This document shows, piece after piece, positions 15,804 to 26,271 of a stretch of DNA of 26,735 bases. This DNA comes from Rickettsiales bacterium (lineage in GTDB: Bacteria > Pseudomonadota > Alphaproteobacteria > Rickettsiales > UBA1997). Position 1 is the first letter of the stretch, and every line of letters starts with the position of its first letter. The notes under the pieces were generated by a model. The model saw nothing but the letters and a program-made list of their open reading frames with translations, had not been told where the DNA came from and did no database searches. The stretch spans positions 1-26,735 of the forward strand of contig JBLHNE010000001.1 in NCBI GenBank assembly GCA_047619265.1, read 5' to 3'. The translations under genes and the position numbers were made by a program.

Positions 15804-16634
15804 TTAAAAAATATTTGCCATTCCATCTTGCACAATCTTCTCATTTAAAAAGACCCCATTTTCAAAAATCTCAATTTTGCTTTGACCAGAAGTTTCGCTT
15901 GTCGATGTTAGTGGGTAAAAAATATCGCCAATAAACCTGCCAAAAATATCTACCTTGTTGGTGCGAACTACAACTTCACCTAAACTTGCCGCCAAATCTC
16001 GCAAATATCGGAAGGAATTTTGCCCTGCATCTGTTTTTATTTCTGGTGCGTCAATTTGCGCTAAGCGAATTCGCTGTTTTTTAAAAATATTAAAACCAAG
16101 ATCAACATTTAAAATTAGAGTGTCGCCATCAACCACATCAAGAATTTGAGCTTGGTAGAGGTAGTTGGCTTTAGTTGGTCTTTGAATTTTTTTGGACGAA
16201 ATTTCTCCACCAGAATTATTAATATTCTTAAGTTGCACTCCTAATTTTCCTGCTGACCAGCCTTCAAATTTAGCTTTTTCCTCTAAATCTAGCCGCAAAA
16301 CTTCATCGTTAATGGTGATTAAATAGCGGTAATGCGACCAAGAAAGTGTGCTATTAATGGGTAAATTGGGGTATGTAAGGAAAAATTGCACTGAACGGGT
16401 TAGGGTGTTTTTGCTAATTTTCAAATCATCAGAAAGTTGATTAATGATGAGCTGTGAATAATTGGCATTTTCGCTCATTTTTTCCAAATCAATTCTTTTG
16501 CCAATTTGCCAATAGGTTTGAACTAATTGATTTTTAGCGAATGTTTCAATCTTTTCTTTTGTGGCGAAAATGAGATTTGCTAGGTCTGCAGAGAGTTTTG
16601 AATATTGGCTTGCGTTGAGAATTTGATTTTCCAT
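15804..16634 (-). CDS. DUF1016 N-terminal domain fused to a thermonuclease (SNase) domain
   Basis: The N-terminal half has YhcG/DUF1016-N hallmarks (YWQIGKRI, LSWSHYRYL, R..LEEKA..EGWS). The C-terminal half has SNase motifs VVDGDT(169-172), IRLAQIDAPE (R190, D195, E198) and DIFGR (R233). No signal peptide is seen. Confidence 0.8.
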   Translation of the reverse strand: MENQILNASQYSKLSADLANLIFATKEKIETFAKNQLVQTYWQIGKRIDLEKMSENANYSQLIINQLSDDLKISKNTLTRSVQFFLTYPNLPINSTLSWSHYRYLITINDEVLRLDLEEKAKFEGWSAGKLGVQLKNINNSGGEISSKKIQRPTKANYLYQAQILDVVDGDTLILNVDLGFNIFKKQRIRLAQIDAPEIKTDAGQNSFRYLRDLAASLGEVVVRTNKVDIFGRFIGDIFYPLTSTSETSGQSKIEIFENGVFLNEKIVQDGMANIF

Positions 16635-20053: not shown

Positions 20054-20184
20054 ATATCCGATGTCATAAAATCATCAAAAATAGAATCTATTTTATCCGC
20101 AGAAATGCCAAAAACACTTCGTCGCTTTTCGTCGCCTTCGGCTTGAAGACGACTCGTGCCCGAAAAAAATCACAGATTTTTTCC

Positions 20185-20225
20185 ATAAAACCTAAAAACA
20201 GCTGTTCGCTGTTTTTAGGTTTTAT
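20185..20225. terminator. Perfect 18-bp stem hairpin, terminator-like on both strands
   Basis: ATAAAACCTAAAAACAGC-TGTTC-GCTGTTTTTAGGTTTTAT. Confidence 0.55.
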
Positions 20226-20275
20226 CCATCCAAATATCAATTCGAGCGCGATAATAAAGCAAGTTTCTAATCAAA

Positions 20276-20344: not shown

Positions 20345-21505
20345 CTACCCACCCACCTCAAACCTTCCAATCTGCTCCATATCAAAATCAGAGCTATTTT
20401 GATTAGCAGCCGTAAAGTCATATTCTCCATAAAAATTAACATGGCGCCAAGTGATGATTGATCCGTTAAGTATTATTTTGATCATTTCTTGCTGCTTCTC
20501 TTCATCTTTTTGCTCCATAAGAAGCCTTGTCAAATAAAGATAATTCCACAGCACAATTACGTTTTGAATTAATCGCCGACAATTAACAATAATCTCCTGC
20601 TCTTCTTTACTCTCAACATCGAACTCCTGATTATTCCCAAAAAATACTGCCTTGGCAAATTTATGGGATAACTCAATTAGATTTAATTGTTTTTCAATAG
20701 CTTGTCTGAGTTCAAGGTCGTCATAATATTTTAAAATGAATATGGTTTTGGTAATTCTGCCAAATTCTTGAAGACCTTTATATAAAGGGTTCTGTTTGGC
20801 GTAAGAACTCAATCTTTTAAATATTTGAGAAGCTGATGAATGCTTAAGTTTTATGGTAGCAATCAATCTTAAAATATCTTCCCAATTTTCTCTCATATAT
20901 TTTTCATCAATATATTCTGAAGGTAATATTTTGTAGCCTTTATCCTTAAAATCTTTAATTTTTTGATCTTTGAAAGAGTAAAGTTTTTGCTTCTTTAGAT
21001 TTTTAATCCTTGGGGCAAAAAAGATTCCCAGCATATGAGTGGCTGCAAATATGGTCTCAGTGTAGCCATGGGTATCAGTTGAGTGAATATCACTTCTGAT
21101 TTCATCATTATGCATTAATCCATCAATCATAAATGGCGCTTCTCGCTCTGCACTACTGAAGGCGGAGTTGTAATAAGATCTGCCCTTTTCATCACCAAAA
21201 CTGTAAATGCTGACTCCTTTTTCTTTACCGTGATATTTGAAAGAATAATTAGAATTTAGAGAATCAACGGCAATATTAAATTTCTGCCCATCTGATGCGG
21301 TGTGGGATTTATTTTGGTTCATCAAAAATAGATTTGTCAGGCTCAAATTATCAATATGTTTATTGACGATGTTGTTTGCTGCATAGAGGCTATCCAAGCT
21401 AAAATACCAATTTATGGTATTTTGCAAGGTGTTGATATTTATCTCTTTTGAGGTTCTGGCTATTTTATTGGTGTCAATATCATCTAAATATTTTGATAAA
21501 AACAC
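20345..21505 (-). pseudogene. tnpA: Tn3-family transposase, 5'-truncated (catalytic DDE domain only)
   Basis: Motifs TASDGQ, HSTDTHGYT, QLNLIE...AVFFG, and WRHVNFYGEYDF. It is 386 aa versus about 1000 aa for full Tn3 TnpA. There is an in-frame stop at 21517-21515, and recognisable homology starts near 21480 (IDTNKIART). Confidence 0.9.
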
Positions 21506-21698: not shown

Positions 21699-22046
21699 AT
21701 GACCTTCATCAACAAAGCAATAATTCAAGGCAATCTAGGATCTGATCCTGTTATGAAGCCAAAAAAAGGCGGAAAATTCGTCATTTTTTCAGTTGCCACT
21801 GAGGTTGAATATTCAGACAAAAATGGCGTTCAAAGAAAATTTGTTGAATGGCACAATGTTGCAGTTTTTGATGATTTTCTAACGTTGCTTGCCAGAGGTA
21901 ATTTTAAAAAAGGTGACTTAATAAGGGTTGAAGGAACTCTATCAACAACAAGCTGGGAAGGAGCTGATGGTAAAACTAATTATCGAACTCAAATTGTGGT
22001 TAGAAATTCTAAAATTCATAAACTTGAAAAAATAAAACTTCCTTAA
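21699..22046 (+). CDS. ssb: Single-stranded DNA-binding protein, OB fold only
   Basis: NKAIIQGNLGSDP, FSVAT, EWHNVAVF, KKGDLIRVEGTL..W. Ends KLEKIKLP with no acidic tail. Confidence 0.88.
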   Translation: MTFINKAIIQGNLGSDPVMKPKKGGKFVIFSVATEVEYSDKNGVQRKFVEWHNVAVFDDFLTLLARGNFKKGDLIRVEGTLSTTSWEGADGKTNYRTQIVVRNSKIHKLEKIKLP

Positions 22047-22152
22047 AATCTCCCTTTTATGGAAAAATTTAATTTTCCAGAACGATTCCGATTTTCCCCC
22101 AAATTCATTCCATAAATTCCTCCACAAATCAAAGTGCATAAATATAATGCAT

Positions 22153-22180
22153 TTTTAGCATAAGTTTTATTAATATCGGA
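22153..22180 (-). other. dif/Xer-like site A (28 bp)
   Basis: Minus strand reads TCCGATATTAA-TAAAAC-TTATGCTAAAA. The right arm is 9/11 identical to the E. coli XerD arm TTATGTTAAAT. The left arm is degenerate. Confidence 0.4.
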
Positions 22181-22235
22181 CTTTAGTCTCGGCAATTATA
22201 TTAAAATAATTTTTTAGAATAATTTAAAAATAAAT

Positions 22236-22571
22236 ATGGAAATACCGAAAGATATAGAGGCGGAAATTTACTTTCTAACATCAAAAGAAGGTGGAAGATC
22301 TTCCCCAGCTTGTGATGGTTATAGACCCCAATTTTACTACAATAATCATGACTGGGATGCTCGTCATTTATACCCCGATGTAGAAAAAGTTAATCCTGGC
22401 GATACAGTTCGAACATATCTTGGCTTTATGAGTCCTCAGGAACATTTCGGTAAAGTTTATGTTGGTATGGAATTTTTGGTTCGCGAAGGCTCGCGTATAG
22501 TTGGGAAGGGTAAAATCACAAAAGTTCTTGAATTAGAAAAATCTGCAAAGAATTCCGCTGGTATTAGATAA
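22236..22571 (+). CDS. Stand-alone EF-Tu C-terminal (domain 3)-like protein
   Basis: EAEIYFLTSKEGGRSSP...GYRPQFY...PGD...GMEFLVREGSRIVGKG parallels EF-Tu EAEVY.LSKEEGGRHTP...GYRPQFY...PGD...GLRFAIREGGRTVGAG. No GTPase domain or domain 2. Confidence 0.85.
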   Translation: MEIPKDIEAEIYFLTSKEGGRSSPACDGYRPQFYYNNHDWDARHLYPDVEKVNPGDTVRTYLGFMSPQEHFGKVYVGMEFLVREGSRIVGKGKITKVLELEKSAKNSAGIR

Positions 22572-22600
22572 AATAAAAAGATTTTTTAAGAATAGTTAAC

Positions 22601-23248
22601 ATGAAAATCTACGCAATTAGCGGGCTTGGGGCAGATGAGAGAGTTTTTGATTTTTTAAAACTTGATTACGAACTTGTTCCAATAAAATGGATAGCACCAA
22701 AAGATAATGAGGATATTTCCAAATATTCATTAAGGCTTTCCAAAATAATTGATCAAAGTGAGAAATATGTAATATTGGGAGTTAGTTTTGGAAGCTTGAT
22801 TGCTGTGGAAATGTCAAAAAAGTTAAATCCAGAAATGACAATTTTAATTTCTTTCGTTGAAACCAGCAAAGAATTGAGGTGGATTTATAGATTAGTTGGA
22901 AAATTAAAATTGATAAATTTAATTCCAAAATCTCTTTTAATTCCGCCAAAAAAACTAATTCAATTTCTCTTTGATGCCAAAAATACCAAACTTCTAAATA
23001 AAATTCTTGATGATACTGACCCCAATTTTGCAAAATGGGCACTTAGGGTTTTACTGAATTGGGAGAGTGATTATAAATTAAAAAATTCTTTAAAAATAAA
23101 TGGTACAAAAGATAAATTAATTCCTCCTCCAAGAATTACTGATGGAGTAAAATTAATTAAAGACGGTGGACATTTTATGGTTGTTGATAAGGCTGATGAA
23201 ATAAGCCGAGAAATAAACAGTAGTTTGGCATTAATCACTCAGAACTAA
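22601..23248 (+). CDS. Alpha/beta hydrolase
   Basis: ISGLGAD oxyanion region, GVSFG nucleophile elbow, GTKD acid and GGHF His. It lies 29 bp after the EF-Tu D3 gene. Confidence 0.88.
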   Translation: MKIYAISGLGADERVFDFLKLDYELVPIKWIAPKDNEDISKYSLRLSKIIDQSEKYVILGVSFGSLIAVEMSKKLNPEMTILISFVETSKELRWIYRLVGKLKLINLIPKSLLIPPKKLIQFLFDAKNTKLLNKILDDTDPNFAKWALRVLLNWESDYKLKNSLKINGTKDKLIPPPRITDGVKLIKDGGHFMVVDKADEISREINSSLALITQN

Positions 23249-23347: not shown

Positions 23348-23377
23348 ATTCCACATAATCAGCTTTTTATGGAAAGC
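23348..23377 (+). other. Second Xer-like dyad with 8-nt spacer
   Basis: ATTCCACATAA-TCAGCTTT-TTATGGAAAGC. Confidence 0.3.
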
Positions 23378-23391
23378 TATTTTTAAAAAGC

Positions 23392-23419
23392 AGTAGACAT
23401 AACGCATTTTATGTTAACT
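23392..23419 (+). other. dif/Xer-like site B (28 bp)
   Basis: AGTAGACATAA-CGCATT-TTATGTTAACT. It has 11-6-11 geometry, a CATAA/TTATG core, and a right arm 10/11 identical to TTATGTTAAAT. Confidence 0.62.
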
Positions 23420-23605: not shown

Positions 23606-26062
23606 ATGAAACATCACATCATTCCGGTAATTATAAGCATTTCTTTATTTTTTATTTCCCATCACGCAAATGCGAAACAAACATATCTTGGTGATGATAT
23701 TTCCTATTTTGATGTTAAAGAATATAAGGGAAATGTTGATCTAATCCAATCCGCTCATGACGGAATCTTCGTGTCTGCATATCGCTTAATGAATGGCCTT
23801 GGTATGCCAGACAAGAATAAACTTAAATCACAAAAATATCACTCATACAATAATTTCGGCAGCGAATGGCAAAAAAAAGTAAAGAATATTTTAGACATTA
23901 ATAATTCCTCATGGAGAAGATGTATTTCGGAATTTACAATGAATCTTTTGGATGAAAGGATAAATAAATTGGGAATATCACATCAATATTTGAAAGATTG
24001 GATAAAAAATCAAGAACTGGTTTTTGACAATTGTCAATATAACTCTCCTTTGTCTTTACCAAATTCCTACAAAACAAAGAATAAAGATTCTGATATTTTA
24101 AAGAATTTCAAAAAATATGATCACCAATATCAAAAAGCATCAGCATATTTTTATGCCAGAAAATTTGATGAATCTATTGCAGAATATTCAAAAATAACCT
24201 TAGAAAATAATTCTCCTTACAGAAGCCTATCATATTACATGATTGCCAGATCTTTAATTCAAAAAGGAAATGAAGATGGTGCATATGATAAAATCCAACA
24301 GATTTTAAAGAATGATCAATTAACAGAAGTTCATCAATATTCTCGCGATTTATTAGCAGTTTTAGCCAACAAATCCGGCGATTCAAAATATCATCTTGCT
24401 CAATTGGAGCAGATATTAAATCCTTTATTAAAAGAAATGAAAACCGACGAAGATCGGAAGTTTCTGGAAGATGAATTTAAAACAATAAATTACAATTTAT
24501 GGTATTATTTAAGCTTCAATCAGGGCAATGTTGATTCTGAGATTTTTGCTAAATTCGATATGTTGGATTGGATTTTAACTTTCACAGTTCCGGGGATGTA
24601 TATTAAGGATACTAGTTGGGGTGATAAAATTTCAGATAATTGTGACGAAAATTGCGATGATGATTCCAAATCAATGCAAACCCTAGGTCATTCTATAGAT
24701 AAATGGCACCAAACCAAGAAATTGCATTGGTTAATTGTAGTGGCACTTAGAATACCTCAAAATCATCAATTTCAGGAAGAATATTTATCCACTTTTAAAG
24801 TTCTTAATGACAAAGTAAAAAATAATAAAGCTAGTGATGAAGAACTTTACGCCTACCCAACCATAATTCATCACGCCGTAAGATTGATGCTCAATGCAAA
24901 AAAATATGATGAAGCTGAAGCGATAATTAACTCATCTTTAAACTATCAAAAAGAATTTGCTCCAAGAATAGCTTTTCATTCTGCAAAATTCTTAATTGCA
25001 GCTGGAGAAAGTGAAAGAGCGCAGCGAATTATTAACGCAGCAATAAAGCAAGATGAATTTATAAATGCTGGCAGATTCTACAATCTAAAACAAATCTTAG
25101 CTAAAGATTTAGATGAATTAATATTAGTCAGCACAAAATCTTTAAAAGATCGCGGTAAATATTACAGCCCTTCAATCGATGATTCTCTGGCAAATATAAT
25201 AAATTTGCTGCCTTTAGATAAAATAGTGCAAATTAGTAACAATAAATTACTTCCCGCCGAAAAAAGATCAGACTTAAAACTAGTTGCATGGACAAGGTCC
25301 ATTTTATTAAAAAGATATGATGTTGCCGATAATCTGACTAGCGATCTTAAAAAAGAAATCCCCCAACTATTGCCTTATTTAGAAAGATACTCAAAAGCCA
25401 AGAACAAAATAGATAAGCAAAAAGCCGCAACTTATTTATTCCTCAAAAATCCTAGAGTCAGACCATATATTTATCCCATAAATTACTATGGCGATTATTT
25501 GCCTCAAGACTCCGCAAAATTAAGCAAGTTTGAAACCATAGATGTAAGAAATCACACTTATAATAACTGGTGGTGCGCAATTGATCCCGATGAGCTTTTA
25601 TCAAAAGCAAAAGAAGGAGTTTTCAATCAGGTTAAATCAAAAAGCATATTCGAATCAGGAAGCTTTTCTAGATCGGGATATTATCGAAACCCTCCAGCAA
25701 TCAATAATACTAAGTTTTTAAAAACAGTAAAAGACTTGGCCGATAAATATCCAATCTTTAAATTAGTAGATTACAAAGAGTTAGAAGAGTTGCAAAAAAC
25801 CGGTCATGCTACTCAATATTTGGTAAATCAATCTGTAATGTGGTACAAAAATAAAAGCTCATTTTCTAAAATGGATAAACTGTTGCCAGAAGCTCTACAT
25901 AGGGCGGTGAAAGTAACTAGATATGGGTGTAGTAAAGATCAGAACAAAGAAATATTTTCTAGAAAAGCATTCAAAACTTTGCATTATAACTACGATGCTG
26001 AAAATGAGTGGATAAAGAAAACCCCTTATTGGTTTGGATATGGGTTGCCTTCCAAATTATAA
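23606..26062 (+). CDS. Secreted helical-repeat (TPR-like) hypothetical protein
   Basis: 818 aa. Sec-type signal peptide (…LFFISHHANA|KQ), TPR-like helices (YQKASAYFYARKFDESIAEY), 6 Cys, and C-terminal motifs NNWWC, PEALHRAV..TRYGC and KTPYWF. Confidence 0.8.
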   Translation: MKHHIIPVIISISLFFISHHANAKQTYLGDDISYFDVKEYKGNVDLIQSAHDGIFVSAYRLMNGLGMPDKNKLKSQKYHSYNNFGSEWQKKVKNILDINNSSWRRCISEFTMNLLDERINKLGISHQYLKDWIKNQELVFDNCQYNSPLSLPNSYKTKNKDSDILKNFKKYDHQYQKASAYFYARKFDESIAEYSKITLENNSPYRSLSYYMIARSLIQKGNEDGAYDKIQQILKNDQLTEVHQYSRDLLAVLANKSGDSKYHLAQLEQILNPLLKEMKTDEDRKFLEDEFKTINYNLWYYLSFNQGNVDSEIFAKFDMLDWILTFTVPGMYIKDTSWGDKISDNCDENCDDDSKSMQTLGHSIDKWHQTKKLHWLIVVALRIPQNHQFQEEYLSTFKVLNDKVKNNKASDEELYAYPTIIHHAVRLMLNAKKYDEAEAIINSSLNYQKEFAPRIAFHSAKFLIAAGESERAQRIINAAIKQDEFINAGRFYNLKQILAKDLDELILVSTKSLKDRGKYYSPSIDDSLANIINLLPLDKIVQISNNKLLPAEKRSDLKLVAWTRSILLKRYDVADNLTSDLKKEIPQLLPYLERYSKAKNKIDKQKAATYLFLKNPRVRPYIYPINYYGDYLPQDSAKLSKFETIDVRNHTYNNWWCAIDPDELLSKAKEGVFNQVKSKSIFESGSFSRSGYYRNPPAINNTKFLKTVKDLADKYPIFKLVDYKELEELQKTGHATQYLVNQSVMWYKNKSSFSKMDKLLPEALHRAVKVTRYGCSKDQNKEIFSRKAFKTLHYNYDAENEWIKKTPYWFGYGLPSKL

Positions 26063-26221
26063 GAAATTTGGCATACGAAGTGGCAATAATCTTTTCTCGA
26101 ACACTAAATTAGGTAGATTTTAAGTATTTTCTATTCATCTTTTCGAATTCCACTGGAGATAAATAATTATTAGTTGTGATGAATCCGAATTCGAGAGTTT
26201 GTCCGATTGGGATTTAAAAAC

Positions 26222-26271
26222 ACTCTATAAAGTATCGGGGGTCCGTTTGGAGGATATGTTCACTAAACCCC
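26222..26271 (-). repeat. Candidate second Tn3-like terminal inverted repeat
   Basis: From the outer end it reads GGGGTTTAGTGAACATATCCTCCAAACGGACCCCCGATACTTTATAGAGT. It shares GGGT..ACATA..AACG.A.CCCGAYACTT..TATAGAGT with the 20276 end. Confidence 0.45.

Follow-up and report, generated by a model that had tools for sequence, protein, structure and literature searches.

A stand-alone relative of EF-Tu domain 3 from a horizontally mobile gene family, with a putative role in immunity or defence

In a window of 26,735 nucleotides (the whole stretch of contig JBLHNE010000001.1 of a Rickettsiales bacterium that was analysed), the gene at positions 22236-22571 on the forward strand encodes P0001, a real stand-alone protein related to domain 3 of elongation factor Tu (EF-Tu). 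It has the fold of that domain and belongs to a widespread and unstudied family that is under purifying selection, is horizontally mobile, has no fixed neighbour, and has kept one set of EF-Tu residues and lost another. A role in immunity or defence is putative. We put at roughly 0.4 the probability that P0001 protects as a decoy, binding toxins or phage proteins whose contact on EF-Tu is domain 3.

The gene and its product

The open reading frame (117 codons) is uninterrupted and specifies a protein of 111 aa. Its sole Pfam match was GTP_EFTU_D3 (PF03143) at residues 5-97 (E 2e-12), with a score of 47.8 bits against the curated cut-off of 27, which places P0001 in this family. The NCBIfam models of EF-Tu covered it only at profile positions of about 303-396. 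Alignment with E. coli TufA gave 40% identity over 92 aligned residues and paired Ile88 (codon ATA, 22497-22499, forward strand) with TufA Thr383 counting the initiator Met, that is, Thr382 of the mature protein. The AlphaFold model (pLDDT 94) consists of a six-stranded barrel, a four-residue insertion with His70, and a C-terminal helix at residues 100-109. It superposed on EF-Tu domain 3 with a Z score of 15.6 and an rmsd of 1.7 over 92 residues, and its best structural matches were EF-Tu chains. P0001 is thus a PF03143 member by both sequence and fold. The earlier note had described a 111-aa protein matching only EF-Tu domain 3, with Ile88 (ATA) at the Thr382 position, and had proposed a GTP_EFTU_D3 search. 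The Pfam, alignment and model results agree with the description.

The possibility that P0001 is a tuf gene was considered and rejected: the G domain and domain 2 are absent from the chain, the NCBIfam score was 57 bits as against 522, and the upstream gene is ssb. A homodimer prediction scored 0.03, which gave no answer and was counted neither for nor against anything. The gene was present without differences in contigs of two public ice-metagenome runs, X1, which covers 22019-22605 and is possibly the source sample, and X2, which covers 22318-22567. Two further runs, X3 and X4, cover the gene thinly or not at all and were given no weight; no RNA run with the gene was listed, which has no bearing on its expression.

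Family, integron cassettes and genomic setting

A search with P0001 returned at least 207 clusters, the best 120 of which were 58-79% identical to it and mostly 105-130 aa long; a wide search returned 1842 representatives, EF-Tu among them. Family members were found in Gammaproteobacteria, Betaproteobacteria, Acidobacteriota, Verrucomicrobiota, Planctomycetota, Chloroflexota, Myxococcota and Bacillota with a patchy distribution. For 400 gammaproteobacterial species, the only tally in which genome G104 is counted, one further stand-alone copy was present among the top matches listed, and 60 relatives of the host gave no stand-alone copy, only matches at the level of tuf (at most 88 bits as against 199). 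A pattern search of IMG/VR detected no family member, and a phage collection gave tuf-like matches only. Entries named 'EF-Tu C-terminal domain-related protein' in UniRef and RefSeq (WP_007020618.1 of Neptuniibacter, a Thr-bearing member; WP_415878123.1) belong to P0001's own family, the name being automatic only, and members are often mislabelled as elongation factor Tu. Literature searches found no study of the stand-alone domain-3 family and no description of a stand-alone EF-Tu mimic. The median dN/dS in the family was 0.09 for unsaturated pairs, and length and termini are kept across it. For the P0001 gene itself dN was 0.15-0.36 and dS was saturated. EF-Tu formed a separate clade in a quick tree (support 99, branch 1.33).

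A search for longer proteins returned two fusions and then EF-Tu. Most domain-3 fusions of about 200-300 aa carry unrelated partners (CPCC, DUF5071, DUF6881, SnoaL) and may be read-through of adjoining cassettes. Eleven representatives (P0150, P0160, P0164, P0168 at L177:5001-5699, and others) combine a domain-3-like part with one common unnamed C-terminal domain of about 120 aa, and these look like a true two-domain subfamily; one of the eleven is on a plasmid of Chondrinema (Bacteroidota).

Many homologs lie in arrays of short co-oriented ORFs with attC hairpins between them. The attC sites were called by a strict rule together with a covariance model, in place of a looser hairpin heuristic that proved too permissive. 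The covariance model was trained on 33 sites, of which a single one adjoins a family gene. The model gave 254 matches, all on the expected strand. Among 135 loci, a number that includes near-duplicates, an attC site adjoined the family gene in 46 and flanked it on both sides in 31; for the closest loci the count of genes with an adjoining site was 24 of 35. Of the 4 variable positions, 3.77 agreed between the upstream core and the inverse core downstream, compared with 2.54 across loci, and intI adjoined the arrays in the two genomes checked (G063 and G064). A more distant, unannotated member (L176:3866-4345, Aeromonas plasmid pKPC-1ac6, NZ_CP026227.1; also NZ_CP026123.1) occupies the third cassette position in a class 1 integron with intI, where aac(6')-Ib4 and a LysE cassette precede it; its core equals its inverse core and its attC is seemingly cut short. 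Judged from these loci, family members exist chiefly as integron gene cassettes. Many homologs resemble the BRiCs and other cassettes of unknown function of Kieffer et al. in being a single promoterless-type ORF between attC sites; EF-Tu is unmentioned in the accessible parts of the text and supplement of that study (10.1101/2024.07.02.601719). The P0001 gene, unlike such cassettes, has no attC: no match was obtained beside it even with the filters off, and the next gene is 29 bp away. No intI exceeded the cut-off in the host assembly, which is 84% complete. This copy was thus rejected as an integron cassette.

This copy lies instead with an alpha/beta hydrolase gene (22601-23248, forward strand; 215 aa, GxSxG at residues 59-63) between two inverted sites of XerC/D type, a dif-module layout found under a loose rule. 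The left dif-like site (22153-22180, reverse strand; 11-6-11, XerD-like arm TTATGCTAAAA) is the weaker of the pair. The right site (23392-23419, forward strand; spacer CGCATT, XerD-like arm TTATGTTAACT) recurs, together with a leader of about 45-60 bp, beside other cargo in the same-genus genome G005 and in contig L077, where homology stops at the XerD-like arm. G005 and L077 share both arms of the dif-like site, and no inversion joint was listed. The rule was set after the fact and gave 8 matches in the whole 1.36 Mb genome; in relatives the pattern occurred at control level, G005 excepted. A second Xer-like site with an 8-bp spacer and a cer-like layout (23348-23377, forward strand) is located just upstream of the right site. 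A possible sigma-70 promoter precedes the domain-3 and hydrolase genes (22121-22148, forward strand; 10/12), such matches being at chance level in the region. Upstream are ssb (21699-22046, forward strand) and a fragment of a Tn3-family transposase, the C-terminal DDE part only (20345-21505, reverse strand). The ssb gene is identical in L075 and L076, in which a different 513-aa gene follows it; the divergence falls at about 22105-22116, some 40 bp before the left dif-like site. Since the right site recurs with other cargo, and since the Tn3 fragment and ssb are common to other strains in which the different 513-aa gene follows, the region is mobile and strain-variable. Xer-mediated cargo exchange at the putative dif-like sites is plausible only, because the strain breakpoints lie outside the spacers. 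In the pdif modules of Acinetobacter plasmids, XerC/D sites flank one or two genes. The domain-3 and hydrolase genes are likewise two genes between inverted 11-6-11 sites, the right one of which recurs with other cargo, but, unlike in clear pdif modules, the left site is weak and the breakpoints fall outside the spacers.

Several other elements were observed in and around the region. A Tn3-like end at about 20276 coincides exactly with the start of the L077 homology and has an identical copy on contig C56, and a proposed right Tn3 end near 26271 is weakly similar to it (about 15-17/45). Short repeats at 20110-20240 and 26090-26195 of the window have many diverged genomic copies, many at loose contig ends, and are probably miniature mobile elements. 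Immediately past the right dif-like site, positions 23606-26062 encode an 818-aa TPR-repeat protein with no PADLOC match, and at 15804-16634 a DUF1016_N domain is fused to a staphylococcal-nuclease-like domain. The 513-aa protein that replaces the two-gene module (L075:8531-10072) has no Pfam match; the genes after it encode YhcG, a resolvase and an Mrr/helicase protein. Right after priA (L095:4830-4857, contig C79 of G000) there is a dif-like site whose spacer, TGTATA, is of the E. coli type and which is possibly the chromosomal dif; the dif-like site of G005 is in the same nuoD-priA neighbourhood.

Residues kept and lost, and possible functions

Conservation was mapped in E. coli EF-Tu numbering for 119 close and 118 distant members, and compared with lists of EF-Tu contacts. 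G316, G317, R318, Y326, R327, Q329, R377, E378 and G379 were conserved at 80% or more in both groups, and P0001 retains the EF-Tu face formed by R318, Y326, Q329, R377, E378 and G379. The family has lost H319, T320, R333-T335, H364, and also M349 and M351, which we take to be EF-Ts contacts (1EFU); T338 is replaced by Asp and F323 is variable. New and conserved are W40, D41, A42, H/Q44, F64, H70, G72 and the helix at 100-109. W40 was conserved in 97% of close and 78% of distant members, D41 in 95% and 77%, and H70 in 98% and 80%, all three being absent from EF-Tu. P0001 therefore shares the barrel and the EGGR, YRPQF and REG loops with EF-Tu domain 3 (PF03143; TufA residues of about 300-393; PDB 5I4Q_C, 1EFU), but differs from it in having lost the residues facing the G domain and EF-Ts, in having gained a DWDA..H signature, the insertion and the C-terminal helix, and in being accessory and mobile.

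In the decoy reading, P0001 is a domesticated, free-standing EF-Tu domain 3 from a family that crosses phyla as one accessory gene, most often as an integron cassette. This copy would be a recent arrival that lacks attC and lies in a mobile Tn3/dif-like region; the host genome, recovered from an ice metagenome, is small and AT-rich, and dnaX scores suggest that it is alphaproteobacterial, perhaps Rickettsiales-like. Remodelling of the faces toward the G domain, domain 2 and EF-Ts would make the barrel stable alone, the former domain-2 side probably being covered by the C-terminal helix, W40 and the insertion that bears H70. The surface of the EGGR loop, Y326/R327/Q329 and R377/E378/G379 would be left exposed as bait. 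P0001 would then bind and titrate some foreign protein, either an interbacterial toxin or a factor of phage origin, for which this face of EF-Tu is the recognition surface, acting as a stoichiometric decoy or an orphan immunity protein, and the Thr382 position would be irrelevant. The solitary mobile lifestyle and the selective retention of one face argue indirectly for this reading, as do the separate capture of domain 3 on pNP40 described below and the fact that protection is common in assayed cassettes: of 129 mobile-integron cassettes without assigned function, 45 protected against phage (10.1101/2024.07.02.601719). Domains 2-3 of EF-Tu are a recurrent contact in conflict systems, including Avs7 and the Leviviridae replicase (PMC13581612) as well as CdiA and Qbeta complexes. 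The earlier note had proposed a non-phosphorylatable decoy for EF-Tu-targeting toxins or phage factors; the decoy remains plausible for a real, selected domain-3 protein, but its basis in Thr382 does not hold.

Several results weigh against a decoy. No partner, toxin or defence gene recurred in 137 family loci, the sole repeats being near-duplicate contigs and two likely chance pairs, which indicates that the protein works without a linked partner. A cognate toxin was found neither in these loci nor in four distant plasmid loci (Paraburkholderia, Ralstonia, Spartinivicinus, Deinococcus); the Paraburkholderia copy is about 1.8 kb from a PAAR gene, again with no cognate toxin. Two queries of 400 Gammaproteobacteria gave no toxin-adjacent relatives. 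A TreTu_C search of five carrier genomes gave no match, and the controls were likewise silent. PADLOC 2023 returned no match for P0001, and many cassettes are not defensive. H319, T320 and T338 on the same face are changed, so that the mimicry is imperfect. E378 bonds to Y326 and R318 in an internal network of hydrogen bonds and salt bridges (PMC12221289), and the conservation of this triad may therefore be partly for folding. Moreover, a small protein must outcompete EF-Tu, which makes up 6-10% of the proteome (PMC13581612). As to known systems, the TreTu/TriTu pair of Salmonella Rhs-main likewise involves an interbacterial toxin that targets EF-Tu, but TreTu modifies D21 in the G domain, and TriTu, an unrelated protein that forms a beta-lid, does not imitate the target (PMC9825190). 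Orphan immunity genes are hoarded without toxins (PMC3482391); no cognate toxin was found for the domain-3 family.

A minority possibility is that the barrel serves as a scaffold and that a new site (D39-W40-D41-A42-x-H/Q44, F64, S66, H70) binds a small molecule, a metal or a protein that is not a partner of EF-Tu. The conservation of W40, D41 and H70 in close and distant members and their absence from EF-Tu are consistent with such a site, and many cassettes encode small ligand-binding proteins. Domain 3 alone also has a small-molecule pocket, the surface formed by R318, H319 and E378 that accommodates KKL-55 (PMC11409059). However, in more distant members (Aeromonas, Spartinivicinus, Paraburkholderia, G394) the new site varies and the EF-Tu-like loops are better kept, the site holds no known catalytic motif, and residues of the W40/D41/H70 type may merely cap the former domain-2 face.

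It is rather improbable that P0001 is an RNA-binding modulator that holds tRNA or tmRNA on its T-stem face, either to keep nucleases away from the RNA or to adjust translation or trans-translation. R318, Q329, E378 and G379 are kept, and in EF-Tu E378 contacts the T-stem and tunes tRNA binding, the pocket being important for tmRNA binding (PMC11409059, PMC12221289). On the other hand, H319, T320 and H364 are lost, T338 is now Asp, the median pI of the family is 5.9, and tight tRNA binding needs all three domains of EF-Tu (PMC5851678).

Thr382 of EF-Tu is the target of Doc phosphorylation; in the closed form of the factor the residue lies buried at switch II (PMC5851678). The alignment of I88 with this site, the retention of the phosphate-binding R377 and the presence of three ORFs with Fic/Doc motifs in the host genome would fit a non-phosphorylatable decoy trapping Doc-family kinases. 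This reading fails because the column is Thr in 61% of close members (Ile 24%, Val 13%) and in 31% of distant members (Val 39%, Ile 19%), being mostly Thr in the former and free among the three overall. In addition, the G-domain-facing neighbours R373, A375, G380 and A385 have drifted, and no Fic/Doc gene recurs beside the 137 family loci. The mixture is ordinary variation at a beta-branched strand position freed of the G domain, where selection neither favours nor opposes a phosphorylatable residue. We thus give the Doc trap little credence; replacement of the Doc target, which the earlier note had taken as a design feature, does not stand as one, and the Thr382-to-Ile substitution itself is incidental.

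Even less credence is given to P0001 as a modulator that sequesters EF-Ts or as an obligate partner of the adjacent hydrolase, both of which had been suggested earlier. Domain 3 of EF-Tu does touch EF-Ts (PMC9529903), but M349 and M351 are unconserved and F323 is variable. The two genes are separated by a 29 bp gap within one module, but no hydrolase homolog lies beside the family gene in any of the 137 other loci, and the nearest named homologs of the hydrolase are from Bacteroidota. The hydrolase is a co-passenger and not a conserved partner. The neighbourhood analysis that the earlier note had called for upheld the stand-alone status across the 137 loci; the cassette lifestyle and the dif-like flanks had been overlooked there. 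Separately, a TriTu immunity domain (PF24689, E 2e-9) was found joined, by fusion or read-through, to P0317, the top homolog of the hydrolase.

Finally, a decaying tuf fragment or functionless passenger has next to no chance of being correct: although the tuf C-terminus was not found in the 84% complete host assembly, P0001 is 37-42% identical to the EF-Tu domain 3 of relatives as against 58-79% to its family, EF-Tu forms its separate clade, lengths and termini are kept, and dN/dS is about 0.09, in place of the near identity to host tuf and the dN/dS of about 1 named beforehand as marks of decay. With no near identity to host-lineage tuf and no relaxed selection, a tuf-fragment origin is refuted.

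A second capture of domain 3 and significance

An operon on the Lactococcus lactis plasmid pNP40 (L180:665-4252, NC_010901.1) encodes a WYL regulator, a BnzB-like protein (PADLOC E 1.9e-13) and a third protein of 486 aa. The C-terminal part of the 486-aa protein is an EF-Tu domain 3 in which the Thr is kept (Pfam E 7e-23). This domain scored 106 bits on the EF-Tu profile and 50 on the profile of the stand-alone family, and it was captured independently of that family. The operon may be a Bunzi-like defence system into which an EF-Tu bait has been built. Taking the cassette family and the pNP40 fusion together, it is tentatively possible that domain 3 has been repeatedly cut from EF-Tu and spread as a mobile antidote that mimics the target. 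If this is true, some as yet unrecognised group of toxins or phage proteins would attack EF-Tu via the domain-3 face and could be neutralised by decoys.

EF-Tu ranks among the main targets in conflicts between bacteria and with phages, and a strongly conserved mobile family of 110-aa proteins has already reached a resistance plasmid within a class 1 integron. Recognition of the family corrects the mislabelling of its members as elongation factor Tu, and the P0001 family may be usable as bait for attackers of EF-Tu domain 3.
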